A stretch of 64,000 nucleotides of DNA, taken from the NCBI GenBank assembly GCA_964016885.1, contig OZ024751.1, positions 18,786,001 to 18,850,000 of the forward strand, given 5' to 3'. The position numbers and the translations under genes were made by a program. Position 1 is the stretch's first letter, and every line of letters starts with the position of its first letter. Positions 3,241 through 62,117 of this stretch are shown in pieces. Below the pieces are notes generated by a model, which worked only from the letters and a program-made list of their open reading frames with translations, did not search any database and was not told the origin of the DNA. The stretch comes from Eledone cirrhosa. Lineage: Eukaryota.

Positions 3241-4191
3241 CCTAATCAACAACACCTACGTTACTAAACAACCATGAAACTACCACCAACACCACTACCA
3301 GCTACATCACCATCAACACCACAAACAGCACCAAAACCACAACACTACCACCCACACCACCATCAACACCAATACCACTACCGATACCACTACCACCAGT
3401 ACGACTACCACCTACACCACAAACAGCACCAACACCAAAAACACTACCACCCACATCACCACAAACACCACACACAACCCCAACACCAACATCACTACCA
3501 AAACCACCACCACCACTACCACTACCACCTACACCATCACAAACACCACCACCAACACCATCACAAACACTAACACCACCACCATCACTACCAAACTACC
3601 ACCACTACCACCACTACCACCAACACCATCACTACCATACTACCATGACCACCAAACTACCCCCACCACCATCACTACCACCATCACCATCACTACCATA
3701 CTACCGCCAGCACCGCCACTACAACCAACACCATCACTACCAAACTACCAGCACCACCACTACAACCAACACCATCACTACCAAACTACCCCACTCCACC
3801 ACTACCAAACTACCCCACTCCGCCACTACCACCAACACCATCACTACCAAACTACTCCACCCCCACCCTCACTACCACTACCACCAACACCATCACTACC
3901 ATACTACCACCACCACTACCACCACTACCACCACTCCCACCCACCCCACCACCATCACCCCCACCCCAGCCCCCAACACCACCACCACTAACAACAACAA
4001 CAATTGTAACCAACACGATATCAACCGATAAGAAGTTAATAAGGACAACTTACATCGATCTGCCATTGAGATCAAAGGTGAAATCGGTGTAAACAGACTT
4101 TGACCAGTATATCACTATATATAGGCTTGACCATCACAACATTAATATATATCGTTGACCACCATAACACTAATATATAGTACTGACCATA

Positions 4192-4378
4192 ATAACTGTT
4201 TCTACCTTTTGGCACAAGGCCAGCAATTATCCAGTGCATTACTGGTACTTTTATTTTATCGACCCCGTAAGGATGAAAGGCAAAGTTAACTTCGGCGGGA
4301 TTTGAACTCTGAATGGCAAGGGCCGTAACTCTATGCGTCAAAGCATGGTGTCCGATCCTCTACCGATACTGCTAACAC
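4192..4378 (-). mobile_element. tRNA-derived SINE, family A, near full length
   Basis: Reverse complement of the family consensus: A-box-like TGGCAGTATCGG, B-box GAGTTCAAATCC, core CTTTGCCTTTCATCCTTACGGGGTCGATAAAATAAAGTACCAG, tail GGCCTTGTGCCAAAAGTAGAAACAATT. Confidence 0.9.
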
Positions 4379-4379
4379 C

Positions 4380-5070
4380 AATATATAATGTTGACCATAA
4401 CAACACTAATATATAATATTGACCATCTTATCACTACTTCCATCATAACACTAATATATAGTAGTGACCATAGCAACACCAATATATAGCCTTGACCACC
4501 ATAACACTAATATATAGTATTGATCATAGCAACACTAATATATAGTACTGACCATCATAACACTAATATATAGTAGTGACCATAGCAACACCAATATATA
4601 GCCTTGACCACCATAACACTAATATGTAGTATTGATCATAGCAACACTAATATATAGTACTGACCATCATAACACTAATATATAGTAGTGACCATAGCAA
4701 CACCAATATATAGCCTTGAACACCATAACACTAATATGTAGTATTGATCATAGCAACACTAATATATAGTACTGACCATCATAACACTACCACCATGATA
4801 CTAATATATAGTAGTGACCATCATAACAACACCAATATATAGCCTTGACCACCATAACACCAATATATAGTACTGACCATCATAAGATTACCACCATGAT
4901 ACTAATATATAGTAGTGACCATAACAACACCAATATATAGCCTTGACCACAATAACACTAATATATAGTATTGATCATCATAACACTATCACCATAATAC
5001 TAATATGTAATACAGACCATAACAACACCAATATATAGTAGTGACCGACCATAACAACATCAATATATAC
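4380..5070. repeat. ~25 bp minisatellite GACCA(TC)ATAACACTAATATATAGTA with higher-order ~105 bp period
   Basis: More than 20 visible units; the variant order (gtagtgacc / gccttgacc / gtattgatc / gtactgacc) recurs. Confidence 0.9.
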
Positions 5071-5342: not shown

Positions 5343-5480
5343 GATCAGAATGGAGGTGGTAAAAACCAGTTACACCATTACTCACAAGAGTACTCGATAC
5401 TTGGGGTAGTAGAGTGGATAATATGAAAAATTCAGGGCCACGACGGCTGAGCTCCAGCCGTTTCAACAGCTAGATCCAAT
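5343..5480 (-). mobile_element. PLE pLTR-like fragment, 'GAGCTC' family (3' half of hammerhead plus tail)
   Basis: Minus strand reads CTGTT-GAAAC-GGCTGGAGCTCAGCC-GTC, then a tail homologous to 32140-32210 and 33355-33430; microsatellite flanks. Confidence 0.65.
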
Positions 5481-6045: not shown

Positions 6046-6322
6046 TAGTTATGTAATAAAACAACATAAGATAATTATTTCATTTACCAGTGGTTTCTTG
6101 AACGCAAATGTTATGTCTGTCTTCAGTCGTCAGAATGAATAAATAACATGGTGTTTTTATTAGATATGGATTTTCTGACGACTGAAGACAGACATAACAC
6201 CTGCCTTCAAGAAACCACTGGTAAATGAAATAATTATCTTATGTTGTTTATTACATAACTAATAAGGTCTGTAGCCTTCATGTAGCAGTCTTTTTCCTGT
6301 ACCTTTCCAACGGAAATACTTC
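6046..6322. mobile_element. Fold-back PLE-type insert: arms 6046-6135 / 6173-6261, right tail; hammerhead core in each arm
   Basis: Arms are near-perfect reverse complements; minus strand of left arm reads TTCATT-CTGACGA-stem II-GAAAC-CACTG-GTA-AATGAA; (TA)n on both sides. Confidence 0.85.
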
Positions 6323-6338
6323 ATATATATATATATAT

Positions 6339-6736
6339 ATTAAGAAATAAACCAAAGAAGCCTTCAATACATCCAAAAGTCTTTATTAGCCAACAATGTT
6401 TCGTCCTATTAAGGACTCATCAGGGTAAGTAAAGCTATAAGAAGCACTATCGGCCAATACAAGCCAAAAACTCAGAAGAATGTATGTATACTCCATATTC
6501 TTCTTAGTTTTTGGCTTGTATTGGCCGATAGTGCTTCTTATAGCTTTACTTGCCCTGATGAGTCCTTAATAGGACGAAACATTGTTGGCTAATAAAGACT
6601 TTTGGATGTATTGAAGGCTTCTTTGGTTCATTTCTTAATTCTTCGGCTCTGTTTAATTACATTGAGCTATACCTTTACTGTCATTTCTATAATATGAAGA
6701 GGGTGTTTAACTCCAACACACTCTAGTATTTTAATT

Positions 6737-6738
<2 letters not shown>
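6339..6738. mobile_element. Fold-back PLE-type insert: arms 6339-6481 / 6497-6639, ~100 bp right tail
   Basis: ~143 bp inverted arms with about 3 mismatches; (TA)n flanks; hammerhead in both arms. Confidence 0.9.
6552..6589 (+). ncRNA. Minimal type-I hammerhead ribozyme
   Basis: GCC-CTGATGA-GTCC-TTAATA-GGAC-GAAAC-ATT-GTT-GGC, then AATAAA at 6591; textbook core and stem II; mirror copy on the minus strand at ~6388-6426. Confidence 0.85.
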
Positions 6739-6774
<36 letters not shown>

Positions 6775-7021: not shown

Positions 7022-7030
<9 letters not shown>

Positions 7031-7089
7031 AAAGTTTGTCCTTCATCAGTGATCTTCCAACCATCATAGGCATTTCATCGCTTTAAAGA

Positions 7090-7120
<31 letters not shown>

Positions 7121-7208
7121 GACAATGCCTATGATGGTTGGAAGATCGCTGATGAAGGACAAACTTTTTTCATATGTAACCCATTTGTAACTCCGCAGCG
7201 CCTTTATT

Positions 7209-7212
<4 letters not shown>
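7022..7212. mobile_element. Fold-back insert: arms ~7022-7074 / 7124-7175, poly-T in loop, right tail
   Basis: ATATGAAAAAAGTTTGTCCTTCATCAG...GGCATT versus its reverse complement; CTGATGA at 7149 without a complete GAAA half; (TA)n flanks. Confidence 0.8.
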
Positions 7213-8793: not shown

Positions 8794-9148
8794 AAGACTT
8801 GTCATGAAGAGGAAACACAGAGTACTGTATAAAAAAATGGTGAGCTCATGTGCGAGGGTACAGTAAAATAGTTTATAAAATAGAGTAAAAAGCCTTAAAG
8901 ACGGAAAAAGTAGTTACCATCGGCCGCTCTGATGTATCGATCCCAATTATCAGATATGGGTTCGATTCCTCATAGCGTCCGATGGCTCTTCACTCTATTT
9001 TCTAAGATATATTGAGGCATTTCTACGCAAGAACACACCATTGTTTATATTGACTTTAACAAGCCAGCGCTTCGTAAAAGTCTGAGAGATCGGCTACGTT
9101 TATAGCGAAACGTATGTTATAGAACTTGTAAGATGAAAACATGACATC

Positions 9149-9342: not shown

Positions 9343-9547
9343 GGCGGTGATTTTGGCAATATCGTTAGAGGGTCGGACGCCATGCTTTCCAGCATAGTTA
9401 CGTCCCTTTACGGTCTGAGTTCAAATCCTGTCGAGGTTAACTCTGCCTTTCATCGTTACGGGGGTCGATAAAATAATACCAGTAATACCCTGGAACCAGT
9501 AATACCCTGGAACAATTGCTGGCCTTGTGCCAAAAGTAGAAACAATT
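9343..9547 (+). mobile_element. SINE family A, full length, with internal 17 bp duplication
   Basis: Matches the consensus; ACCAGTAATACCCTGGA is duplicated. Confidence 0.9.
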
Positions 9548-10337
9548 TTAATGACGCTGCTAATCCTATGTCCGAAGAACTTGATTAAACAATGAAAAAA
9601 TAATTGAAACGAAACACAACTGTTGAGTCTGTTTATATTGGCAGGCTGGCCACATGAAGGTATAACAATATCTGTTATAAGATTTCACACCAAGAAACTT
9701 GCAAAAATGCATCCATTTACTTATTTACTTGTTCTGTCATTCACTCCCTTTCACTTTCCTCCTCTCTCATATATATATATACACACACACACATAAATAC
9801 ACATAAGCATATACGTTTGTGTGTGTATATATATATATATATATATACACATACACACACACACACGTGTATGTATATATATAATCGAAGTAGAGAATTT
9901 GAGAATGTTTAAAAGCAACCAAGAGATTATTGATAAAACTGACATATTTGTTAAATATTAAGACATTTTTAGCTGTCACTGACACACACAGACACTCACA
10001 CAAACATATATATATCAAATATTTACACATATATATGAATATAATGTATATATATATATATATACGTATATATATACACGTATATATATACACGTATATA
10101 TATATATATATATTTATATATCAAATACATACACATATATATACATATATATATATATCAACTACATACACCTATATATATATTCATAGATATATAGATA
10201 TATATATCAAATACATACACATATATATACATATATATATATCAAATACACCCATATATATATTCATAGATATATATAGATATATATATCAAATACATAC
10301 ACATATATATAAATATATACATATATATATTTATATA

Positions 10338-11489: not shown

Positions 11490-11550
11490 ATATATATATG
11501 TGTGTGTATATATATATATATAGATAGATATAGATATAGACATATAGATA

Positions 11551-11973
11551 GATAAATATAGACGGGTGTGTAAGATTGTGTATAGAAGATTATATTAATA
11601 AAAGGAATTCCAACTTTGTCTGATTTACTCATTTTATTTACAATCCTTAAAAATTTATAATGGTTTTATAATGAAATAGTATGATAGAATATTAAATGTT
11701 AAGTGTTAATTGAACAAGTACTTTCATGGTTTCGCACTCTTCAGGTTCATAATGTGTGGTGACAGTCAAGTTTGCAATTTTCAACAGTTGAAAATTGCAA
11801 ACTTGACTGTCACCACACATTATGAACCTGAAGATTGCGAAACCATGAAAGTACTTGTTCAATTAACACTTAACATTTAATATTCTATCATACTATTTCA
11901 TTATAAAACCATTATAAATTTTTAAGGATTGTAAATAAAACGAGTAAATCAGACAAAGTTGGAATTCCTTTTA

Positions 11974-11980
<7 letters not shown>
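11551..11980. mobile_element. Near-perfect 390 bp palindrome (arms 11591-11785 / 11787-11980) plus 40 bp left tail
   Basis: Centre TTTTCAAC-A-GTTGAAAA; about 2 mismatches; reduced hammerhead-like GAAC-CTGAAGA-TTGC-GAAAC-CATG at ~11824-11847; same family as 54476-54703. Confidence 0.92.
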
Positions 11981-12012
<32 letters not shown>

Positions 12013-15037: not shown

Positions 15038-15073
<36 letters not shown>

Positions 15074-15077
<4 letters not shown>

Positions 15078-15328
15078 TAAGACAGGGGGAAAGAAAAAAT
15101 GGCTTCACTTGTGCTTTCAACAAATTTATTTTCTTCACAAAATCCAAAAAGAATTTTTCTTAAAAAAAATTATTTTATAAATTAAGTTAATTTATAAAAT
15201 AATTTTTTGTAAGACAAATTCTTTTGGGATTTTGTGAAGAAAATAAATTTGTTGAAAGCACAAGTGAAGCCATTTTTTCTTCCCCCCTGTCTTAATATAC
15301 CTAACTGTACCAAGGATTACACACATTT

Positions 15329-15333
<5 letters not shown>
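15074..15333. mobile_element. Palindromic insert: arms 15074-15185 / 15187-15298, 35 bp right tail
   Basis: 1-nt loop (ATTAA-G-TTAAT); (TA)n flanks; only a degenerate GTGAAGA...GAAA motif. Confidence 0.85.
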
Positions 15334-22659: not shown

Positions 22660-23230
22660 TATCCGTCTATCTATGGAATACTCATCCACTTAAATTGTTA
22701 TGCAGTATGGATTATTCATCATCGAAACTGGCGGAGGATTTTATTGAAATTCACACCAAACATGTTCTATGTAATATAACCGTGTTTGGAACACAGGTGA
22801 AATAATGATCTTACATGAAATAGTTTTAGATAAATATGAACACTTTAAATGAATGATAACTAGGGATATTTTCTGACTGTGTGGTAAAAAAAGGGGGATA
22901 ATTAACCAACTCATAGGAAGATGTAACTCACCCTGTTAGTGATCTGCAACTCCGTCGCATAATAATTTAATGCGTCGGGCTAAGATGTTTTTGGTCTTGT
23001 TATACGCATTTTTTTATGTATAATGAATGCCCGTTTAAAATAATTTAATGTACGAGATGCTTCATTTATCAATATTCTCATTTAATTAATATATTTTGCA
23101 ATTGTTTACTGCCATTTGTATATATATATATATACAAATGGCAGTAAAATATACACACATATGTATATATGCACACACGCACACATGCATATATGCACAC
23201 ACACAAACACACACATATATATACATATAT

Positions 23231-23276
23231 CTGTTGAAACGGCAGGAGCTCAACCGTCGGGGTCCCGATTCCTTCA
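23231..23276 (+). mobile_element. 'GAGCTC' family pLTR fragment (hammerhead 3' half)
   Basis: CTGTT-GAAAC-GGCAGGAGCTCAACC-GTC-GGGG between TA tracts. Confidence 0.6.
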
Positions 23277-23310
23277 TATATATATATATATATATATATA
23301 TTAGCCCTAG

Positions 23311-23389
23311 TTCTCTGATGAACTTTGATTTTCCATTAGAAATCCATTGGATTTCTGGTGTTTTACAAAGCGAAACCGATCGGTCAGGG
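23311..23389 (+). ncRNA. Type-I hammerhead ribozyme with extended stem II (insert ~23301-23475)
   Basis: TTCT-CTGATGA-(A)CTTTG...CATTAGAAATCCA/TGGATTTCTGGTG...CAAAG(C)-GAAAC-CGATCG-GTC-AGGG; palindromic stem III ACCGATCGGT; (TA)n flanks. Confidence 0.8.
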
Positions 23390-23470
23390 CGAAAAGGATA
23401 GGTAAATATTTAAATTATATTTTTTAATTTATTTTAAAAAATTGGTTGAATTTTGCTTGTTCTGCTTATC

Positions 23471-23771
<301 letters not shown>

Positions 23772-26753: not shown

Positions 26754-26938
26754 GACGGTGAATTGGCAGTATCGGTAGAGGGTCGGACATGCTTTCCAGC
26801 ATAGTTACGTCCCTTTACGATCTGAGTTCAAATCCTGCCGAGGTTAACTTTGCCTTTCATCCTTACGGGGTCGATAAAATAAAGTACCAGTAATGTACTG
26901 GGTATTTGCTGGCCTTGTGCCAAAAGTAGAAACAATTA
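26754..26938 (+). mobile_element. SINE family A, full length (3' fragment follows at 26995-27046)
   Basis: Consensus match from head to tail. Confidence 0.92.
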
Positions 26939-27294
26939 TACAATATATATATATATATATGTCGTGTAGACATGGATAAATACATAGGTATGTGCCAGTA
27001 ATGTACTGGGTAATTGCTGGCCTTGTGCCAAAAATAGAAACAATTATCTAAACATCATCTCACAGCATAACCAAATTATTAGGCGCAGTTTAATTAAGTG
27101 TCAACCATAACTCCATCTACCCTAGTAGTTTACCGGTGTATAACGGGAGTTGCTTATTCGTCCGGCAGGAGGCCTCTTTTATCGCAACTAACCACCATAT
27201 CTGGTAGCCGTATCGCAATCCACCACATGCTGCCGGTTCTCAAGCGGAACAGTGAGTTATGATTATGAAAAACCTATTATTAATATCTATACAG

Positions 27295-27481
27295 GGCGGT
27301 GAATTGGCGGTATCAGTAGAGGGTTGGACGCCATGCTTTCTAGCATAGTTACGTCCCTTTACAGTCTGAGTTCAAATCCCTCCGAGGTTAACTTTGCCTT
27401 TCATCCTTACGGGGTCGATAAAATAAAGTACCAGTAATGTACTGGGTAATTGCTGGCCTTGTGCCTAAAGTAGAAACAATT
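27295..27481 (+). mobile_element. SINE family A, full length, with TSD
   Basis: Flanked by direct TTAATATCTATACAG. Confidence 0.93.
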
Positions 27482-27534
27482 AATATCTATACAGCCGATG
27501 TTAAAGTTAAGATTCTGTGAAATAATCTATTATA

Positions 27535-27716
27535 TAATTGTTTCTACTTTTGGCACAAGGCCAGCAATTACCCAGTGCATTACTGGTACTTTATTTTATC
27601 GACCCCGTAAGGATGAAAGGCAAAGTTAACCTTGGCGGGATTTGAACTCAGAATGGAAAGGGCCGAAACTCTATGCGTCAAAGCATGGCGTCCGACCCTC
27701 TACCGATACTGCCAAT
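27535..27716 (-). mobile_element. SINE family A (subfamily 2), with TSD
   Basis: Flanked by AATAATCTAT(T/A)ATATAA. Confidence 0.92.
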
Positions 27717-27810
27717 AATCTATAATATAATAAAGGGAGGAGTGGAGGACAGCGTCCGTTTTATATGTTTTTATCCCGTTAGTAAAATAAGTTGGATTAC
27801 TTTGAATAAA

Positions 27811-27998
27811 TAATTGTTTCTACATTTGGCACAAGGCCAGCAATTACCCCAGTGCATTACTGGTACTTTATTTTATCGACCCCGTAAGGATGAAAGGCAA
27901 AGTCAACCTCGGCGGGATTTGAACTCAGATCGTAAAGGGACGTAACTCTGCTGGAAAGCATGGCGTCCGACCCTCTACCGATACTGCCAATCCACCGC
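27811..27998 (-). mobile_element. SINE family A, with TSD
   Basis: Flanked by TTGAATAAATAAT. Confidence 0.92.
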
Positions 27999-31752: not shown

Positions 31753-32046
31753 GTGTATGCGCAGGTGTATGTGTGAGTGTGAATGCCATCGTTCACACAA
31801 ACAAACTCATTCATGTATACAAACAAACAAACAAACAAAGGAGAAACATGTAAGAAAAGATAATATTACGAATCAACTGAGGAAGTGAGAGGCGGTCACA
31901 GTTATGGCGTCGGTGGTGGTGATTGAGCGTGGGGTGGAAGGTGTTAGAGTCGTGGGGTGAAGAGAGTGTGACTATAGTGGTAGTGGTGATGATGACGTCA
32001 GCTGTGGTAGTGGGATGGTAAAGGTGATGTCTGTGATTACACACAC

Positions 32047-32080
<34 letters not shown>

Positions 32081-32081
<1 letters not shown>

Positions 32082-32215
32082 GAAAAATGTTTGACCCCGA
32101 CGGCCGAGCTCAAGCCGTTTCAACGGCTATTTCTGGACTCTACTACTCTAAGTATTGAGTACTCTGGTGCGTTATTGTCCATCTGGTTCCCTACCACACC
32201 TCCTTCGTTATATAA
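32081..32215. mobile_element. 'GAGCTC' family insert with internal inversion
   Basis: 32081-32143 is the reverse complement of 50960-51022, whereas 32140-32212 is the family tail in + orientation. Confidence 0.7.
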
Positions 32216-32237
32216 TATATATACATATATATATATT

Positions 32238-32660
32238 TAAAAAAAATAGAGGTGTGACACCCGAGTTGTGATATATTAGTAAAAAGGAAAAGAAAATGCT
32301 GACAAATTTTTCCCAGTGAAAAATAGTTTAATTAGTAATAAGTATAAATTAGTAATAAGTATTGGTTAGTATTCAGTTTTAATTTTAAGTTTCTACCGGT
32401 TGCGCATTTCTAATGCTTTTCAAAAATAATTTTGAGATAGAGCGCCCGTGATGTTTGCTCTAATCAGATTAGAGCAAACATCACGGGCGCTCTATCTCAA
32501 AATTATTTTTGAAAAGCATTAGAAATGCGCAACCGGTAAAAACTTAAAACTAAAACTGAATACTAACCAATAATTATTACTAATTTATACTTATTCCTAA
32601 TTAAACTATTTTTCACTGGGAAAAATTTGTCAGCATTTTCTTTTCCTTTTTACTAATATA
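32238..32660. mobile_element. Near-perfect palindrome (arms 32272-32465 / 32467-32660) plus left tail
   Basis: Centre CTAATC-A-GATTAG; about 4 mismatches; degenerate hammerhead TTGAAAA-GCATT-AGA-AATGC-GCAAC-CG-GTA; (TA)n flanks. Confidence 0.92.
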
Positions 32661-32676
32661 TATATATATATATATA

Positions 32677-33116
32677 TACGATATATTAACAAATGGAAAC
32701 TATATTTATAAAACCATATTTATTTCATTATACATATTTCAAGGACACCAAGTTAAATTATGGTGTGCTTTCATCGGATAAAATATAATATAGAGCAGTT
32801 TTATAAATAAATAGTGACATACCCTTAAAGAATGCGACCATTTCTGTTGGAAGCTCGCGGGAAATGGTCGCATTCTTTAAGGGTATGTCACTATTTATTT
32901 ATAAAACTGCTCTATATTATATTTTATCTGATGAAAGCACACCATAATTTAACTTGGTGTCCTTGAAATATGTATAATGAAATAAATATGGTTTTATAAA
33001 TATAGTTTCCATTTGTTAATATATCGTATTTTTACTCCAATAATTTGTTGAGTGCTTTATATCAGTTATAAAAATATTTGCTTGTTGTATCCCAACAATT
33101 TAAATAGAACTTCTAC
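32677..33116. mobile_element. Fold-back pLTR insert (arms 32677-32844 / 32861-33028, ~88 bp right tail), related to the termini of the coding PLE
   Basis: Arms nearly identical; terminus and tail align with 34822-35060 and 38640-38788. Confidence 0.92.
32920..32984 (+). ncRNA. Type-I hammerhead ribozyme
   Basis: TATTTTAT-CTGATGA-AAG.ACACCA...TGGTGT.CTT-GAAAT-ATGT-ATA-ATGAAATA; 8 bp stem I; overlapping AATAAA. Confidence 0.8.
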
Positions 33117-33176
33117 ATATATATATATATATGAATATATATATATAAATATATCCATATATATATATAAATATAT

Positions 33177-33277
<101 letters not shown>

Positions 33278-33354
33278 TATATTGGAAAAGTAAATAACAA
33301 CAAGGAGTAGAGTTAGGAAAGGTGTTAGGTATTAGGTTCCCGCTTGAGATATAT

Positions 33355-33572
33355 ATAACAAAGAGGGTGTGGGAAGATACCAGGTGGACCATAACGCACC
33401 AGAGTACTCAATACTTAGGGTAGAAGATTGGGTAATAGGAAAAGAGTCAGGACCCCGACGATTGAGCTCCGGCCTTTTCGACAGCTAGATCCGAACAGTT
33501 CAGTTCTATCTGTCGAAACGGCCGGAGCTCAGCCGTTGGGCTCCTGGTTCGGCTCTTGACTCTTTTCCTATA
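33355..33572. mobile_element. 'GAGCTC' family fold-back insert, left tail
   Basis: Arms ~33435-33484 / 33510-33571 (ATAGGAAAAGAGTCA... / ...TGACTCTTTTCCTAT); both truncated within hammerhead stem II. Confidence 0.8.
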
Positions 33573-33788
33573 TATATATATTTGTTTAACCTGTTTAGCT
33601 TGCTTCGTTTTTTGGGCTCCGGTGGCGGATAGCTTCACGACCACCGTTTTCATTTTGTCTGGCCTCTATAACATATGTTAATTACTCTGGTCTTCTTTTA
33701 GTGCATTGAGCGCTTGGCGCATATCTCGAAAATTGCGTTTCGCTTGCTTTTGGCCACCGACGAAATACGATCTGGCTGAAATTATATT

Positions 33789-33826
<38 letters not shown>

Positions 33827-33964
33827 AGAGTGTTGAAGTTTGCTTGAAGCATTGTGGAATAATAAAAATAGTCGTTTTCCAAAACCTCAACAATGCAGAT
33901 GGGTAAATCATCGGGTAACAGAATCGGGTGGTAATGAGAGAGAGATGTAAGAAGCTTCGAAAAT

Positions 33965-34022
<58 letters not shown>

Positions 34023-34234
34023 AGGAAATTATTCATATTCGTAGAACTTATGACCGGTAAGCTTTTTCTCAATCTTCTATCTTTCAATTTCAGCTTTTCT
34101 TTCTCATTCTATATTCTGATGAAGGACTGATGTCGAAAACGTAAAGACTCTTTTCATACTATATCAAGCGTCAAATAAATATATTTCTTAATTATAATGC
34201 GTTGTTTGCTTTGTTGTTTCCGTTTAACTTTTGC

Positions 34235-34384
<150 letters not shown>

Positions 34385-34485
34385 TCAATCGTAAGATGTA
34401 TAAATACCACCATATCACATTGGCAGTCGACTTTCCAGGTGATTTCCTTCGAATGAAACAGTTCTAGTCCTGTAGAAGCCATTTC

Positions 34486-34516
<31 letters not shown>

Positions 34517-34693
34517 CAATGTTGTCTACTCTTGGTGGTAGGGTCCGTACTCTAGATAGAATTCAATGTAATCTGATCCAGTGAAATCTATATATATGCG
34601 GCCGACCGAACTAGAAACTGCTAAATGTGTGGCCGCCCTCTTGTCTCTCTGCCTTTTCAGCCCCATGGATTATATTCCTTTGTTAAATTTTGA

Positions 34694-34751
34694 ATACCTG
34701 ATGATGTCGCCGGATTCATACTGAACCGGGTCATTGAAATGTTCATAGTAT
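34694..34751 (+). ncRNA. Type-I hammerhead ribozyme in solo pLTR-like insert 34516-34800
   Basis: ATAC-CTGATGA-...CCGG.TTCA-TAC-TGAACCGG...-GAAAT-GTTC-ATA-GTAT-AATAAA; (TA)n flanks. Confidence 0.72.
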
Positions 34752-35299
34752 AATAAACCTTAAAGGAATTACACCAGTCCAGCCTCCTGTTATTTTATAA
34801 TATATATATATATATATATATGCAAAGTTTTATTTAAATTGTTGGGTTAACAACGAGTAAATATTTATAACTGATATAAAAGCACTCAACAAGTATTTGG
34901 AGTATATTTACGATATTAAATAAATGGAAACTATACTTATAAAACCATATTTATTTCATTATATATATTTCAGGGATATCATATTAAAAAAATATGTTAT
35001 GCCTTCTTCAGACAAAATACAATATAAACAGTCTTATAAATAGATAGATTCGACATACCTTTCAACTTCGACTTCTATTTGAAAAGTTGATTTGGTAGTG
35101 AAAAAATATTAGGGACAGTTATAAAAAGAAAGAAAGAAAGAAAAACGAAGAAAAAGAAGAAATGCATGCAACTAAATAGAGAGAGATAGATATAGAGAGA
35201 TAGATAGAGAGAAGAAATTCATGTAAAGAAACAGAGAGAGATATATAGAGAGAGGAAAAAAACACAGAAGGAGATAGATAGAGAGAGAGAGAGAGAAGG

Positions 35300-35345
<46 letters not shown>

Positions 35346-36040
35346 TATAGAGAGATAGATATAGATAGAGATAGAGAGAAAGAAACTAGGTAGTTGGGCA
35401 CCAGTTGAGTGACGTATCAATGATATATTTATTTATTTATTTATTTATTTAGCTCTAGTATTAATGTAGAGAGAGATATATGTGGTTAAGAGAGAAAACA
35501 GCCGTTACATAGAGAGAAAAGAAAAATATCCAGACAAAAACGAGGCAGATTTAAAACACAATGTTTCATCAATGTAAAAAATATCAATTCGTATAAATAT
35601 CAGTATTCATGAATGAGACGCGTATCAATAATGTGTGAAAAATAATGATCATATGTCTAGTTTAAAATTCCTAGGTTTATATTAGAGTTGAGTTAAATAG
35701 AAGGTTATCCCAGATTTTATACTATATACATCCATGTGAATTTACGTGATCAGCTCTGCAAATTCATATTTCACACGAAAACATTCTCATTGTGCTATAA
35801 AAATTTAAGTATACATATATGTGTACATACACACAAATATATATAGAGTCTACATTAATTTTAACAATACTATTCATGTCTTTACTCTACATGATTATCG
35901 TTCAAGCATAAATAGAGAACAGATATCAATATATCAATAAAAATATCAGAAACAAAAAGTAAATAAAAAACAAAAAAATCAAAAAAATATTAAAAATAAA
36001 AATATTAAAAATATTAAAAATATTAAAATAAAACATAAAT

Positions 36041-37323
36041 AACATTACTATGGGATCATCCGACTCAGCTCAGGTAACTGACCTTGTGGGCCTATTTTTA
36101 ATCAATTCGCTGCATAGGAAAATACCCGGTGCTACCGGAGGTTTATATAGAGATGACATGCTTTTACTTATTGAAAATAATAACTCTGAACTAAATAGAA
36201 AAAGAAAACAAATTACACAATTTTTTAATTACTTTAATCTAAAAATAGAAATTGAGAATAACCATAGAATAGTCAATTTCCTAGATGTAACATTAAATCT
36301 CAACACATGTCTTCACTATCCATTTCACAAGTTGAATGAAAACTTAAACTATGTCAGCTTTAACTCTAACCACCCCAGATCTGTTAAAAATACTATAGTA
36401 AACTCTGTTCAAAATCGTATCTCTAGAATCTCATCTAATAAAAATATTTTCGACGAAAAAGCCCAGTATTACAATGAAGCGTTAGCTAGAGCAGGATATA
36501 GTGATAAAATTATGTACATAGATAATAATAGACAAACTAACCAAAATAACAACAATTTTAATTACGGCAACAACTTTAACAACTATAATAGAAAGCATTA
36601 CAATAATTCCAAAAGCCAAAAAAGAAATAGAACTAGGAATATAATATGTTTTGCCCCCCCCCCCCCCCTTTCTCACTAAACATTAAAACCCACATCGCTA
36701 AACTATTTTTTAATGCTCTTGATAATCGCTTCCCTAGAACACATAGGTATCACTCAATTTTCAATAGACATACTATAAAATTAACCTACTCATCCACCAA
36801 AAATTTAGCACAAAATATTAATAGAATAAATAATAGGAATTTAAAACCTAGCCAAAATACCGATAATAGCATAAATAATATCCAAGTTAACAAATGTAAC
36901 TGTAGAGATAGATCTAAATGTCCGTTAAATAACAATTGCTTAGTTAAAAATATAATATACAACTGTAATGTTAAAACGGACTTAAATTCTTTTAACTATG
37001 TTGGTTCCACCTCGACAGAATTTAAACTTCGCTATAATAACCACAAGAATTCTTTCACAGATCCAAGCAAAAAATCCTCAACATCACTATCAGGCCTACT
37101 CTGGCAACTTAGGCATGATAACGTTGGATATTCAACGGCTTGGAATATAGTCTCAAGAGGGATTCCTTTTAATTCATCCTCTGACACATGTGACCTCTGC
37201 GCGGAGGAGATATTCTTTATACTAAAATCTAAAAATTCCCTTAATTTACGGACAAATTTATTCAGTTGCTGCAGACATATATTGAACTCAACTTTTAAAT
37301 ATAAATATAAATTTAAAATGTAG
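36041..37323 (+). pseudogene. PLE reverse transcriptase (C-terminal half) fused to GIY-YIG endonuclease; one frameshift at C15 (36654-36668)
   Basis: TMGSSDSAQVTDLVG, GLYRDD, FLDVTLNL, SNHP thumb, then PPFSLNIKT, IKLTYS, CNCRDRSKC, NIIY...YVG, RYNNH, CDLCAEE, LN..CRH; no internal stops in either segment. Confidence 0.93.
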
Positions 37324-38396
37324 TATATTTAATTTGATTTATAATTATTTATGAAACTCGCCGATAAATCTTTCGATTCCTTTTTATTTTAAACATTCTT
37401 CATGAATAATTAAACTACCCTAAAAGCTGATGCTCCAAATATATCGAATAAATTTTACACTAGATAAACTTCTATATTAAATATAAGACCATCTGTAGAT
37501 CAAATGGGTATCCTAAACTTTTGGAATGTTTTCTGCTAGACAGGATTTGGTGAATAATTTTGGTTTTGTTTGCTTTTGATTCTGATGCTTATAACGAACT
37601 TGGCAATATATTGTCAATTAACTTTGAAGGGTTGATCTCTGTGGTTGATTTGCGGGGCATACTATGTTTTATTTTTATTTTAATATTTTTAATATTTTTA
37701 ATATTTTTATTTTTATTTTTATTTTTAATATTTTTTTGATTTTTTTTGTTTTTTATTTACTTTTTGTTTCTGATATTTTTATTGATATATTGATATCTGT
37801 TCTCTATTTATGCTTGAACGATAATCATGTAGAGTAAAGACATGAATAGTATTGTTAAAATTAATGTAGACTCTATATATATTTGTGTGTATGTACACAT
37901 ATATGTATACTTAAATTTTTATAGCACAATGAGAATGTTTTCGTGTGAAATATGAATTTGCAGAGCTGATCACGTAAATTCACATGGATGTATATAGTAT
38001 AAAATCTGGGATAACCTTCTATTTAACTCAACTCTAATATAAACCTAGGAATTTTAAACTAGACATATGATCATTATTTTTCACACATTATTGATACGCG
38101 TCTCATTCATGAATACTGATATTTATACGAATTGATATTTTTTACATTGATGAAACATAGTGTTTTAAATCTGCCTCGTTTTTGTCTGGATATTTTTCTT
38201 TTCTCTCTATGTAACGGCTGTTTTCTCTCTTAACCACATATATCTCTCTCTACATTAATACTAGAGCTAAATAAATAAATAAATAAATAAATATATCATT
38301 GATACGTCATTAAACTGGTGCCCAACTACCTAGTTTCTTTCTCTCTATCTCTATCTATATCTATCTCTCTATATTTTCTCTTTCTCTCTCCTCTCT

Positions 38397-38433
<37 letters not shown>

Positions 38434-38679
38434 TTCTGTGTTTTTTTCCTCTCTCTATATATCTCTCTCTGTTTCTTTACATGAATTTCTTCTCTCTATC
38501 TATCTCTCTATATCTATCTCTCTCTATTTAGTTGCATGCATTTCTTCTTTTTCTTCGTTTTTCTTTCTTTCTTTTTATAACTGTCCCTAATATTTTTTCA
38601 CTACCAAATCAACTTTTCAAATAGAAGTCGAAGTTGAAAGGTATGTCGAATCTATCTATTTATAAGACTGTTTATATTG

Positions 38680-38745
38680 TATTTTGTCTGAAGAAGGCAT
38701 AACATATCTTTAATATGATATCCCTGAAATATATATAATGAAATA
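38680..38745 (+). ncRNA. Hammerhead ribozyme of the coding PLE pLTR (mirror copy on the minus strand at 34952-35019)
   Basis: TATTTTGT-CTGAAGA-AGG...CCT-GAAAT-ATAT-ATA-ATGAAATA; stem II differs from 32920 but pairing is kept. Confidence 0.78.
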
Positions 38746-38830
38746 AATATGGTTTTATAAGTATAGTTTCCATTTATTTAATATCGTATATATATATATA
38801 TATTGTTGGTGTTTTTCAATAAACACATCT

Positions 38831-40968: not shown

Positions 40969-41138
40969 ATCATAATCATCGCAATCACGCTCTTCATCAA
41001 CATCATTATCGTCATCACCACCATCACTTTCCTCATCATCACCATCATCATCATCATCGTCATCGCCATCACTATTACCATTATCATCATCATCATCATC
41101 ATCGTCGTCATCGTCATCATCATTATTATCATCAACAA

Positions 41139-41280
41139 AGAGTTACGGCCCTTTATGGTCTGAGTTCAAATCCCGCCGAGGTTAACTTTGCCTTTCATCC
41201 TTCCGGGGGTCGATAAAATAAAGTACCAGTAATACACTGGGATAATTGCTGGTCTTGTGCCAAAAGTAGAAACAATTATT
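41139..41280 (+). mobile_element. SINE family A, 5'-truncated, inside (CAT)n
   Basis: B-box through tail match. Confidence 0.9.
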
Positions 41281-41649
41281 ATCATCATCATCATCATCAG
41301 CAGCAGCATCATCATCATCATCATTATTATCATCATCATCATCGTCATCATCACCATCATTGTCATCATCACAATCATCATTATCATCCTAAACATTTCC
41401 AATCTCTTCTACCCACAAAGCTGGTTTTAAACATGGTCACTCAACCTGCTAGAAATAGCTACCAAATACCTTCAAAATCACTTAATCAACAACAACAACA
41501 GCAGCTAACAACAACAACAACAACAACAACAACAATTCTACTACTGCTATTAACAATATTAACAACTTCAAAATATAAAACACTTCCCTAATGATAAGCC
41601 TATCATCATCATCAACAACAACAATATTTTGATTTGATTACATTTTGTG

Positions 41650-50529: not shown

Positions 50530-50720
50530 ACGGTGGATTGGCAGTATAGGTAGAGAGTCGGACACCATGCTTTGAAGCATAGAGTTACGTCCCTTTATGA
50601 TCTGAGTTCAAATCCCGCTGAGGTTAACTTTGCCTTTCATCCTTACGTGGGTCGATAAAATAAAGTACCAGTAATGCACTGGGATAATTGCTGGCCTTGT
50701 GCCAAAAGTAGAAACAATTA
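50530..50720 (+). mobile_element. SINE family A, full length, with TSD
   Basis: Flanked by TTATTACTTATTGA. Confidence 0.92.
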
Positions 50721-50878
50721 TTACTTATTGAAGTATAAAGAAGAAGAAGAAGAAGAAGAAGAAGAGAAGAAGAAGAAGAAGAAGAAGAAGAAGAAGAAGA
50801 AGAAGAAGAAGAAGAAGAAGAAGAAGAAGAAAGAAGAAGAAGAGAAGAAGAAGAAGAAGAAGAAGAAACAGTGAACTG

Positions 50879-54432: not shown

Positions 54433-54463
<31 letters not shown>

Positions 54464-54475
54464 TAGATAAATATA

Positions 54476-54703
54476 CACGGATGTGTATGATTGTGTATAG
54501 AAGATTATATTAATAAGAGGAATTCTAACTTTGTCTGATTTACTCGTTTTATTTACAATCCTTTAAAATTTATAATGGTATTATAATGAAATAGTATGAT
54601 AGAATATTAAATGTTAAGTGTTAATTGAACAAGTACTTTCATGCTTTCGCAATCTTCAGGTTCATAATGTGTGGTGACAGTCAAGTTTGCAATTTTCAAC
54701 TGT
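54476..54703 (-). mobile_element. Unfolded single copy of the 11551-11980 family (arm plus tail)
   Basis: About 95% identical by eye to 11552-11785, including the tail. Confidence 0.9.
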
Positions 54704-54860
54704 AATGAGATGGGTAAATTTTGTACCTTATATACCGTGAAAAGTGGCTCCAGAATGCTAAATCTTGCAAACTGTATTTCGACCAATCGGTGTGTAGTTT
54801 CACTGAATTACTAAAGCTGATTGGTTTAGGCGTCACGGTTGGTTGAGCATGTCTAACGAC
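54703..54860 (-). promoter_or_regulatory. Candidate Pol II promoter: two CCAAT boxes, TATA box, initiator
   Basis: Minus strand: GTGACGC, AACCAATCAG (~54827-54818), GATTGG (~54788-54783), TATATAAG (54734-54727), TCATTACAGTT (54708-54698). Confidence 0.55.
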
Positions 54861-54964
54861 CACTATTTGATCCTATCCAAAGCATCAATTGTTTTGCTAT
54901 TTTTAGAAATGATGAAAATAGCATTTTCTAGTAATCATCACCATCACTTTTATTATTATTATTG

Positions 54965-55093: not shown

Positions 55094-55330
<237 letters not shown>

Positions 55331-56274
55331 ACCAAGAAAAAATACGTTAATGGTTCAAGTTTTTCCTGGATAGTGAAGGAAAAGAGAAGAAAAGTCAGAT
55401 ATTTCAAATTATTAAGATGAGTATGCAAATGAGGTTGAGGTATAGGGCTGAAAAAAACGTTATTTTTAGACGCTATACAGAATTTAAATAATTGGGATAT
55501 ATGTATGAGTAGGAAGAAGAAAAAACGAAAGAAGAGCTTGTATTTAATAAATTTAAAAAGAATTAACAATTTGCAGGAATGGTGGAATATGATTCCAGAA
55601 TTTAAAATGTATTTAGTTATATTATGAGTTATAATATTGTATATATATAATGAATTAGATTATATGAAGAATTATGGTTGTAAGTAGATTTTATCTTATT
55701 ACATTACAACCGGTTGTAAATATATAAATATATATATAGATTAATAATTGTGCATGTATAAGTATTATAGAAATAGAATTAAGTTACAATTATTAGTTGT
55801 TTATATTTCTCATATGAGATACGAAGGATGTTGATTCTGCATTTTACATTAAAAAAACACGTAGTTTCAAGTTTGTAAGAGGAGAACAATTTGTAGATTC
55901 AAATATTTTGTTCCATTGAAAATCTTTTCAGAATATTGTTAATTTAGCGAAGTTATATAGTTTATCATACATATTATATTATAATGTTTATGTTTGCTCG
56001 ATTGAAAAGAAAGATAACTCCAATCTTGTTTGCTAACCGTTAAATTTAATGAATGATTTCAGAAAATATATAGAGAAAATTATATATTATTTTGTGTGAG
56101 ATTAAATTCAATTATACATTATTTTAGTCGAAAGATGTTGTGAAAGTTTGAAGATCAAAGAAGAGGGAAAAAGTATTGTGCATTTCGAAGAACTATCATA
56201 AAGACTTTCAGGATGTCAATTAAAGATTATCGATCTACATCTGAAAAAATAAATATATATATATATATATATAT

Positions 56275-57121: not shown

Positions 57122-57750
57122 AGGTTTAAAAATAATAAGAAGAAAGCAAGAACGAGAGGGGGGGGGGGGGGAGTTTTCCTCATCAGTTGTCTGCTGCGGG
57201 TCTCGGATATTTCAACGCATTAAAGACAATATATCTACCCCCAGTGCGTTCAATAACTAGGTAAGTTATTGGCAAAAGGGAGGAGGGGGAAAGGATAATA
57301 TAGGATAACAGAAGGCAAAAGGGAAAAAAAAGAGAGAAAAGAGAAAAAACAGCGAAAAAAACAAAAACGAAAAAAAAAAAAACAGGAAGGTGCTCGCACA
57401 TTCTTCGGTTTGTTGTTTACCGTTTTTTTTTTTCGTTTTGTTTTTTTTTTTTCGCAGTTTTTCTCTTTTCTCTCATTTTTTTCCCTTTTTCCCTTCTGTT
57501 ATCCTATATTTTCCCTTCCTTCCCCTTCATCCGTTTTTCCCAAATAACGTACTTATCTAGTTATTAAACGCACTGGGGGTAGATATATTGTCTTTAATGC
57601 ATTGAAATATCCGAGACCCCCCAGTAGACAACTGATGAATAACCCCCCACCCCACCCATCCCCCACCGCCGTTCTTGATTTTCTTCTTATTCTTATTTTT
57701 AAGCCTACTTAACTAGCAATTACAGAGCCAATGCTCTTCTCCATAATATA
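57122..57750. mobile_element. Older fold-back insert: arms ~57122-57385 / 57418-57706, right tail
   Basis: For example CATTAAAGACAATATATCTACCCCCAGTGCGTT versus AACGCACTGGGGGTAGATATATTGTCTTTAATG; CTGATGA at 57632; (TA)n on the left. Confidence 0.85.
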
Positions 57751-58037
57751 TACTTACACACATTTAAATATATTTCCTTTTATTACTGTATATATGGATG
57801 TAAAAAATATGAAATTTATCGCTTCCACCTATGAAATATTAACTGGTCCCATAGGAGTTTGTACCTCATTGGAGGTTTCTTGGGTATTTTAACAAAAGAG
57901 ACCCCTGTACCGTCATAAAATACAACGGGAAATGAATTCTCAAGAACATTAGAAGCCACGGCCTAGTCCAGGAATTGAAAACACGATTTGGTGATTGTGA
58001 GCCTCAAAAACTTAACCAATAGGGAACGCGCTTTCCA

Positions 58038-58307
58038 CGGGGGTCGATAAAATAAAGTACCAGTAATGCACTAAGTAATTGCTGGCCTTGTGCCTAAAGT
58101 AGAAACAATTATTTGTGGGTGGATTGGCAGTATTGGTAGAGGGTCAGACGCCATGCTTTGACGCATAGAGTTACGGCCCTTGCCATTCTGAGTTCACATC
58201 CCGCCGAGGTTAACTTTGCCTTTCGTCCTTATGGGGTTGATAAAAATAAAGTACCAGTAATACACTGAGTAATTGCTGACCTTGTGCTAAAAGTAGAAAC
58301 AATTATT
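58038..58307 (+). mobile_element. Tandem SINE family A copies (3' part 58038-58112; full copy 58118-58307)
   Basis: Consensus matches; both followed by ATTATTTGTG. Confidence 0.9.
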
Positions 58308-59416: not shown

Positions 59417-59616
59417 NNNNNNNNNNNNNNNNNNNNNNNNNNNNNNNNNNNNNNNNNNNNNNNNNNNNNNNNNNNNNNNNNNNNNNNNNNNNNNNNNNNN
59501 NNNNNNNNNNNNNNNNNNNNNNNNNNNNNNNNNNNNNNNNNNNNNNNNNNNNNNNNNNNNNNNNNNNNNNNNNNNNNNNNNNNNNNNNNNNNNNNNNNNN
59601 NNNNNNNNNNNNNNNN
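59417..59616. other. Assembly gap (200 N)
   Basis: N run after a GGT array; sequence on the two sides need not be adjacent. Confidence 0.99.
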
Positions 59617-61804: not shown

Positions 61805-61888
61805 TGCATATATATATATATATATTATATACTGCATATATATATATATATATATATTATATACTGCATCGTATATATATACTGCAAA

Positions 61889-62073
61889 CGGTGGATTGGC
61901 AGTATCGGTAGAGGGTCGGACGCCTTGCTTTCCAGCATAGTTACGTCCCTTTACGATCTGAGTTCAAATCCCACCGAGGTTGACTTTGCCTTTCATCCTT
62001 ACGGTGTCGATAAATTAAAGTACCAGTAATGCACTGGGTAATTGCTGGCCTTGTGTCTAAAGTAGAAACAATT
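61889..62073 (+). mobile_element. SINE family A, full length, with TSD
   Basis: Flanked by TATATACTGCA. Confidence 0.92.
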
Positions 62074-62079
62074 ATATAC

Positions 62080-62117
<38 letters not shown>

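Follow-up and report, generated by a model that had tools for sequence, protein, structure and literature searches.

The stretch analysed here is a 64-kb window (64,000 nucleotides) of the Eledone cirrhosa contig OZ024751.1, positions 18,786,001 to 18,850,000, and its main subject is an insert of ~4 kb at 34822-38788, which an earlier note had described as a young Hydra-like Penelope element with inverted arms. The locus is a young, dead copy of a new Hydra-clade family within the Penelope-like elements (PLEs), arranged in a published layout. As the earlier note claimed, (TA)n flanks the insert on both sides, with target remnants recognised from sequence at 34800-34821 and 38787-38803; the right arm abuts its TA tract, and the left arm lies 81 nt away from the other. 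This distance is filled by an 81-nt tail (34822-34902, minus strand), which is present on the inverted arm only and is homologous to the 87-nt tail, at 33030-33116, of a hairpin. The left arm itself (34903-36041, minus strand) is an inverted, 5'-truncated copy of the element 3' end, ~1.13 kb long, delimited by self-BLAST and global alignment. It meets the rest of the element at a head-to-head junction (36033-36045), where ACAT stands at the natural end of the arm and of the open reading frame (ORF) piece, with a few extra letters between them. On the plus strand, a reverse transcriptase (RT) remnant follows, running from motif 4 (TMG) to YRDD, the thumb and an Asn-rich linker (36042-36653). 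A run of 15 C (C15, 36654-36668) then introduces a frameshift, after which come the linker with its CxCx5C motif, the GIY-YIG endonuclease (EN), CxxC and CxH (36664-37323, stop codon 37321-37323). The 3' untranslated region (UTR) of ~1.47 kb (37324-38789) contains CT and ATCT microsatellites and, from ~37664, constitutes the tail-less right arm.

Both arms read sense-wise toward their flanks, and their arrangement is asymmetric. The tail-less right arm is continuous with the ORF and the 81 extra nucleotides are found on the inverted left arm only, in agreement with the earlier description. Self-BLAST of the arms (34903 to ~36040 and ~37664 to 38789) gave 96.0-96.5% identity, and a global alignment revealed 7 substitutions in 1,107 aligned positions (99.4% alike), with the indels located in simple-repeat tracts; the claim of near-identical arms is borne out by this measurement of their divergence. 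A DNA transposon with long terminal inverted repeats is ruled out by the RT and GIY-YIG sequences inside and by the asymmetric ends.

The coding part consists of two overlapping frames, 36032-36679 and 36637-37323, split at the C15 run. With full-length relatives as tblastn queries, both frames join into one RT-EN gene (E 6e-70), starting at the TMG of RT motif 4. RT motifs are numbered here according to general usage and the labels of the Hydra-clade paper. The first ORF piece aligns from residue 311-319 of relatives of 713-759 aa (P0013, P0017 and P0018), so that ~315 N-terminal residues are absent from this copy, including RT motifs 1-3 and the nearly invariant Asp of motif A. YRDD is present upstream of the nuclease domain. 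Because motif A and RT motifs 1-3 are missing and the frame is shifted, this copy cannot encode a working RT. The absence of stop codons that had been reported is consequently incorrect: the first frame stops at 36677-36679 after the C15 frameshift, and the 5' part of the ORF is lost as well, up to a break within RT motif 4. The proposed role as an enzymatic partner of the hairpins fails for this copy as well, and only its family could have that role. An Asn-rich stretch between the RT thumb and the linker (36530-36640) is ~24 residues longer than in the relative P0003, and a second one, near 36850, shows in-frame length variation in sequencing reads.

Craig et al. (2021, PMC8557442) define the Hydra clade by (TA)n targets, canonical hammerheads and a C-terminal EN that lacks CCHH, together with a CxCx5C linker, CxxC and CxH. 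Further traits are N-terminal RWK and DKT motifs, the lack of CxC and of the IFD, and a single RT-EN ORF (PMC8557442). This copy has the GIY-YIG endonuclease C-terminal to the RT and is inserted into (TA)n. Its linker motif is CNCRDRSKC, a CxCx5C that recurs in 109 of 154 homologs, many of which are fragments. The C-terminal CxxC and CxH are CDLC and CRH, and both motifs occur in all 19 homologs of at least 600 aa. CCHH is absent, as a single Cys and no CxxC lies between IIY and YVG, and none of 93 parsable proteins has two Cys there. In the 19 long homologs, the N-terminal region missing from this copy carries DK[TS] in 16 cases, RW[KR] in 9 and DKG in 1. When compared by eye, the motif series in a consensus of 28 long homologs matches that of published Hydra proteins, and a F-A-P..F-S-L-N stretch is common to the element and Hydra-1_Obim and is not seen in the other five new Hydra consensi.

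The structure prediction agrees with these motifs. A 227-aa C-terminal piece, modelled with pLDDT 85, resembles the GIY-YIG domain of I-TevI (Z 9.5, root-mean-square deviation 2.1, 88 aligned residues), and the next three matches are nucleases too: T4 EndoII, the UvrC GIY-YIG domain and a restriction endonuclease. With the same model, Foldseek ranked the same proteins first, but with an E of only 0.18. The motifs named earlier (C-terminal GIY-YIG, CNCRDRSKC, CDLC and CRH) were all found, in a nuclease predicted to fold like I-TevI. At E<=0.001, 6,260 cluster representatives are related to the C-terminal piece, the best of them with 46% identity; of 10 clusters checked by name, one is labelled informatively, as a hypothetical Argonauta hians protein. 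As a lead only, the ESM Atlas matches were clusters labelled HTH_animal, plus a single cluster in which 17% of the members have RVT_1. The closest relatives found overall are 46-47% identical, which indicates a distinct family.

The other PLE clades do not account for these features. Neptune and Nematis have a CX2-5CxxC linker plus CCHH, a combination not present here. Penelope/Poseidon have CCHH in the EN and no linker zinc finger, again unlike this element, and Naiad and Chlamys have an N-terminal EN and no canonical hammerhead, whereas here the EN is C-terminal and a hammerhead is present. Judged by motifs, hammerhead and TA target rather than by an RT tree, the element can be assigned to the Hydra clade with high confidence. 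The earlier reading of the Cys pattern and (TA)n target as Hydra-like holds on all features testable in this copy.

The family was also sought in sequencing reads, and 10 of the 14 listed runs contain part of the ORF stretch. Four of them (X1, X2, X4 and X12) were aligned to 36020-37660 (1.64 kb) at 85% likeness. In run X1, 1,561 contigs fit, with 400 at 99+%, 463 at 95-99%, 501 at 90-95% and 197 below 90%; read depth is not a copy number here, but the family is multi-copy and diverse. Contigs running upstream of 36042 (6 in X1, 5 in X2 and 2 in X4) give one agreeing sequence (agreement 0.90-0.96), which, read by eye, continues in frame into the W...FD stretch that precedes TMG in homologs. 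This agreeing in-frame extension indicates that longer copies exist. The loose ends of the raw-read run X12 were dropped, as their agreement was 0.36-0.49 and 88% of reads run on unlike.

The reads bear on the state of this copy as well. At the C run, 57 of 223 X12 reads lack 8 letters and 15 lack 5, so that the frames are continuous in 72 of 223; 17 lack 7 and are out of frame. In X4, 20.9 of a depth of 32 is without 8 letters. The C15 frameshift is likely copy-specific or an assembly error. Moreover, 34 of the 40 differences listed (361 in total) fall in the ORF, and 20 of these 34 are silent, against 9.4 +/- 2.6 expected (P about 2e-4). Such an excess of silent sites is as expected if the source copies were under selection, and intact source copies likely exist elsewhere. 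Among the sites listed, the window departs from 95% or more of the X12 reads at 36415, 36649, 37134 and 37185, so that this young copy has either acquired its own changes or originates in a related species.

The spread of the family gives a scale for the likeness of the arms. Since the arms are 99.4% alike while family copies range from 85 to 100%, both arms would come from one source, a comparison weakened by the spread having been measured on the ORF and inner 3' UTR and not on the arms. That two independent insertions entered one TA tract, or that a later inverted duplication or an assembly artefact produced the layout, is therefore extremely improbable: the arms are much closer to each other than family copies are, and no TA run is found at the head-to-head junction. 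A collapsed assembly would not give arms that differ at 7 sites and in microsatellite lengths, and the one-sided tail recurs in at least 8 inserts. Such an origin would fit a neighbourhood that is a nest of separate TA-anchored inserts, and no junction-spanning read set was seen.

Each arm carries a putative type I hammerhead ribozyme motif, in the left arm at 34945-35025 (minus strand, core starting at 35011) and in the right arm at 38674-38752 (plus strand, core 38688), in both cases ~100 nt from the tail-less end. These were called from sequence by an in-house pattern scan, not by Rfam, and the scan gave 7 matches in the window against 0-1 in 10 shuffles. Across three related termini, hammerhead pairing is retained in 97.9% of 95 cells, compared with 36-60% in slid controls, and three stem II pairs changed on both sides; this sample comprises five rows from only three families, and the figure is not a probability. 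The hammerhead monomer is not the minimum-energy fold (z 0.59). A dimeric mode of action is assumed for hammerheads whose stem III is weak and palindromic (PMC4209133). At E<=1, no hammerhead family appeared among the 150 of 432 Rfam matches listed, which held only sub-threshold miRNA-type matches to hairpins and microsatellites.

The termini of the element are shared with two other inserts in the window. The first is an arm-arm-tail hairpin (32676-33116, plus strand) with 169-bp arms, a 16-nt spacer, an 87-nt tail and a hammerhead at 32928. The element 3' end plus tail aligns with its 32853-33116 part at 82% identity over 272 columns (BLAST, E 4e-67). The second is a one-armed, tail-less insert (55198-56255, minus strand) without an ORF match, whose hammerhead has a changed stem III base. 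Its terminal ~120 nt are 76-78% identical to the element (55190-55305, E 1e-23 to 8e-20), and the likeness ends there, with nothing further. Local alignment scores of 263 for the first and 104 for the second stand against a shuffle maximum of 37 (0 of 200 shuffles in each case), so that the sharing of termini proposed in the earlier note is significant by alignment. Its claim of a common arm-arm-tail layout applies to the hairpin at 32676 but not to the insert at 55200, which has one tail-less arm only. Likewise, the idea that the hairpins are tied directly to a PLE stands for one hairpin (32676), through a sister family; seven others are unlike the element. An identity of 82% makes it more likely that the 32676 hairpin comes from a sister family than that it is a passenger of this copy.

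Hairpins of this kind are frequent in the window, to which both the census and the copy search were confined. A systematic scan returned 9 short-spacer palindromes; in 7 of them, one arm directly adjoins a TA run and the other is separated from one by 33-99 nt. BLAST added two further palindromes (33436-33570 and 57122-57706). From the scan, those at 9148 and 27355 were excluded, as they involve a high-copy ~190-bp repeat and lie >300 nt from any TA run. In all nine retained hairpins, one arm is at most 1 nt from a TA run (background 2.3% per side), and the far TA run is within 99 nt in 8 of 9. Together they occupy 2,754 nt, or 4.3% of the window. Apart from 32676, they are eight (TA)n-anchored arm-arm-tail palindromes (6046-6322, 6339-6739, 7023-7211, 11550-11981, 15073-15332, 32236-32661, 33350-33570 and 57122-57790), each of a different sequence, with spacers of 1 to about 50 nt. 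Hammerhead cores are present in four hairpins (6046, 6339, 11591 and 32676). The pattern scan found no core in 15073, 32271 and 33448, for which PLEs of the Naiad type, devoid of hammerheads, are a possible source.

The 11591 hairpin matches, tail included, a one-way copy of its family at 54460-54935 with a hammerhead (core 54659, minus strand), which is ~97% identical to the hairpin arm and longer than it. Since this copy runs on past the 11591 apex, at least one hairpin is the stump of a longer element, which points to the hairpins being truncated insertion products and not a separate passenger class. Non-LTR retrozymes were rejected as their source, because these need head-to-tail tandem hammerhead units and the units here are head-to-head.

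It is improbable that the hairpins are instead dedicated non-autonomous elements, copying themselves as palindromic units with the enzyme of this Hydra family. Published non-autonomous PLEs do share 3' ends with autonomous partners (PMC8557442; PMC9977147), the 32676 hairpin has retained both the entire tail and a hammerhead in which base changes compensate each other, and neither for 32676 nor for 55200 did the window yield a sister with an ORF. However, this element copy is dead, and the seven other hairpins compared with it show no significant similarity (in the best case, 7020, 4 of 200 shuffles scored as high). Additionally, the hairpins of the window all differ from one another in sequence family and in apex, 11591 is a piece of a longer non-palindromic copy, and the 82% match of 32676 fits a sister family.

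The locus as a whole is probably explained as a 5'-truncated, frameshifted Hydra-clade PLE insertion in (TA)n, made in trans through two primed complementary DNAs (cDNAs). The RT-endonuclease of an intact copy elsewhere would likely have acted in trans, nicking both strands of the TA tract so that two cDNAs were primed, one per flank. RT would have started at two sites 81 nt apart on the element RNA, at the tail end and at the tail-less end. The tail-primed cDNA would have stopped after ~1.2 kb, inside the 3' UTR, and the cDNA from the tail-less site after ~2.75 kb, in RT motif 4. Their 3' ends would then have joined head to head through the short ACAT microhomology, each cDNA templating the second strand of the other. 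Early arrest of both cDNAs may yield a hairpin of 200-600 bp that has a tail on one side only, as in 32676 and the remaining hairpins. A PLE protein of Anolis, studied in vitro, cuts the two DNA strands, extends each of them and initiates RT at a pair of internal sites on either side of the tail (PMC11167929).

An inverted arm could also arise within the same element by self-priming, in which a cDNA or antisense transcript folds back and is copied, and EN trims the open end to leave a one-sided tail. Self-priming on an antisense template was proposed in PMC3846280, 'EN-mediated resolution' of the tail is mentioned in PMC8557442, and near-identical arms are in keeping with self-priming. The position of the tail nevertheless makes this route unlikely: it is on the shorter arm in this element, in 11591 (where comparison with the 54460 copy shows the apex continuing along the tail-less arm for another three bases, the overlap being 2 nt) and, weakly, in 32676 (alignment score 43 vs 35). 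Where the shorter arm bears the tail, separate priming of two cDNAs is the favoured reading, whereas the simple form of fold-back of a tail-primed cDNA predicts the opposite. Moreover, fold-back would require a 1.6-kb loop for this element, and the in vitro starts at both tail boundaries occur on both strands (PMC11167929).

Several observations nevertheless weigh against a Hydra-clade insertion through two primed cDNAs. The asymmetry of the arms is decidable in two cases plus the weak one, and the junction contains extra letters, not a clean ACAT overlap. Spacers of 1 nt in 3 of the 9 palindromes of the systematic scan require two cDNAs to end within a few bases of each other, which fold-back would achieve more easily. 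As regards the protein, Pfam gave nothing for both ORF pieces and nothing above the cut-off for 7 homologs, and sequence searches of the PDB gave no significant match, the best RT-like one being a retron-type RT (E 0.78). In the reads, a small share of X1 and X2 depth has the gap at the C run, among the sites listed. No single read or contig in the four runs spans 36020-37660, and no intact copy or whole ORF was seen in them.

Comparison with published PLEs places most features of the element in a known context. In common with Hydra-clade elements such as Hydra-1_Obim and Penelope-13_HM, it is inserted into (TA)n, lacks CCHH and has CxCx5C, CxxC, CxH, YRDD and, ~100 nt before the 3' end, a type I hammerhead; the published entry for Penelope-13_HM gives a 5'-truncated inverted copy of 966 nt at the 5' end (PMC8557442). 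It differs from that clade in its ~1.47-kb 3' UTR with microsatellites, in an estimated full length of ~3.8 kb compared with the published 'generally <3 kb', and in tails of 81-87 nt compared with 30-40 bp; some families of the window have tails of 81-99 nt. This copy is also truncated and frameshifted. With the canonical PLE unit, as described for Pen2a_Av of Adineta vaga (PMC3846280) and the Poseidon element PAc of Anolis (PMC11167929), it shares a head-to-head inverted 3'-end copy, a tail on one copy, microhomology-type 5' junctions and an Asn-rich stretch before the EN; the 36530-36640 stretch recalls the Asn-rich inserts of the Adineta vaga PLEs. The pseudo-long terminal repeat (pLTR) plus tail of Pen2a_Av and PAc, however, includes the ORF start, whereas the hammerhead-to-tail stretch here has stops in all three frames, and no direct pLTR is present. 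The short inserts resemble non-autonomous PLEs (Chlamys-N and MRC1) and non-LTR retrozymes in being non-coding and sharing a 3' end or hammerhead with a PLE, but those form pLTRs or head-to-tail tandems, whereas here every hairpin insert is a head-to-head palindrome with a sequence of its own.

In effect, the differences from known PLEs are of degree: a 1.47-kb 3' UTR, long tails and a hammerhead-to-tail stretch without an ORF start. It is normal for PLEs to contain 5'-truncated copies in inverted orientation and to carry a tail at one end or the other (PMC8557442; PMC3846280), and non-autonomous PLEs (PMC8557442; PMC9977147) as well as very short insertions (median 128 bp) are published. In the literature covered, which is incomplete, no printed account of dense arm-arm-tail palindromic PLE stumps was found. 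The element thus enlarges a small published clade by one family, in which both the 3' UTR and the tail are unusually long.

How PLEs build inverted copies and tails has been described as open (PMC8557442; PMC11167929). A speculative proposal is that many PLE families here leave short head-to-head stumps at (TA)n, and that the rule of a tail on the shorter arm with 2-4 nt of microhomology is the trace of double target priming, with cDNAs started at opposite nicks serving as second-strand templates for one another. If so, thousands of junctions would be available in this genome as natural material on how PLEs finish integration, and it would also be a large source of perfect double-stranded RNA (dsRNA) hairpins for editing or small-RNA pathways. 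In a genome rich in young palindromic stumps, two primed cDNAs and fold-back could be separated by counting junctions. Transcripts of the hairpins, if any are made, would form long stretches of perfect dsRNA; in Xenopus, hyper-editing is driven by palindromic repeats, and such loci are over-represented in octopus (PMC5625713).

Several further repeats were observed in the window. The region 32000-35000 is a nest of TA-flanked inserts. Single TA-flanked fragments at 23300-23475, 34025-34235 and 34519-34799 carry hammerhead cores (23315, 34116 and 34698, respectively) and are likely 3' stumps of other PLE families. Pieces of a repeat family that includes the 33436-33570 palindrome (~85-nt tail) lie at 32057-32214, 33352-33546, 23227-23301 and 5356-5477. 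A 200-base assembly gap (N) is located at 59417-59616. The interspersed, high-copy ~190-bp repeat has at least 14 copies, 80-95% alike, among them 4189-4389, 9343-9550, 26755-26960, 27297-27716, 27807-27997, 41136-41281, 50530-50725, 58118-58307 and 61888-62100, and may resemble a tRNA-derived short interspersed element (SINE) of octopods.

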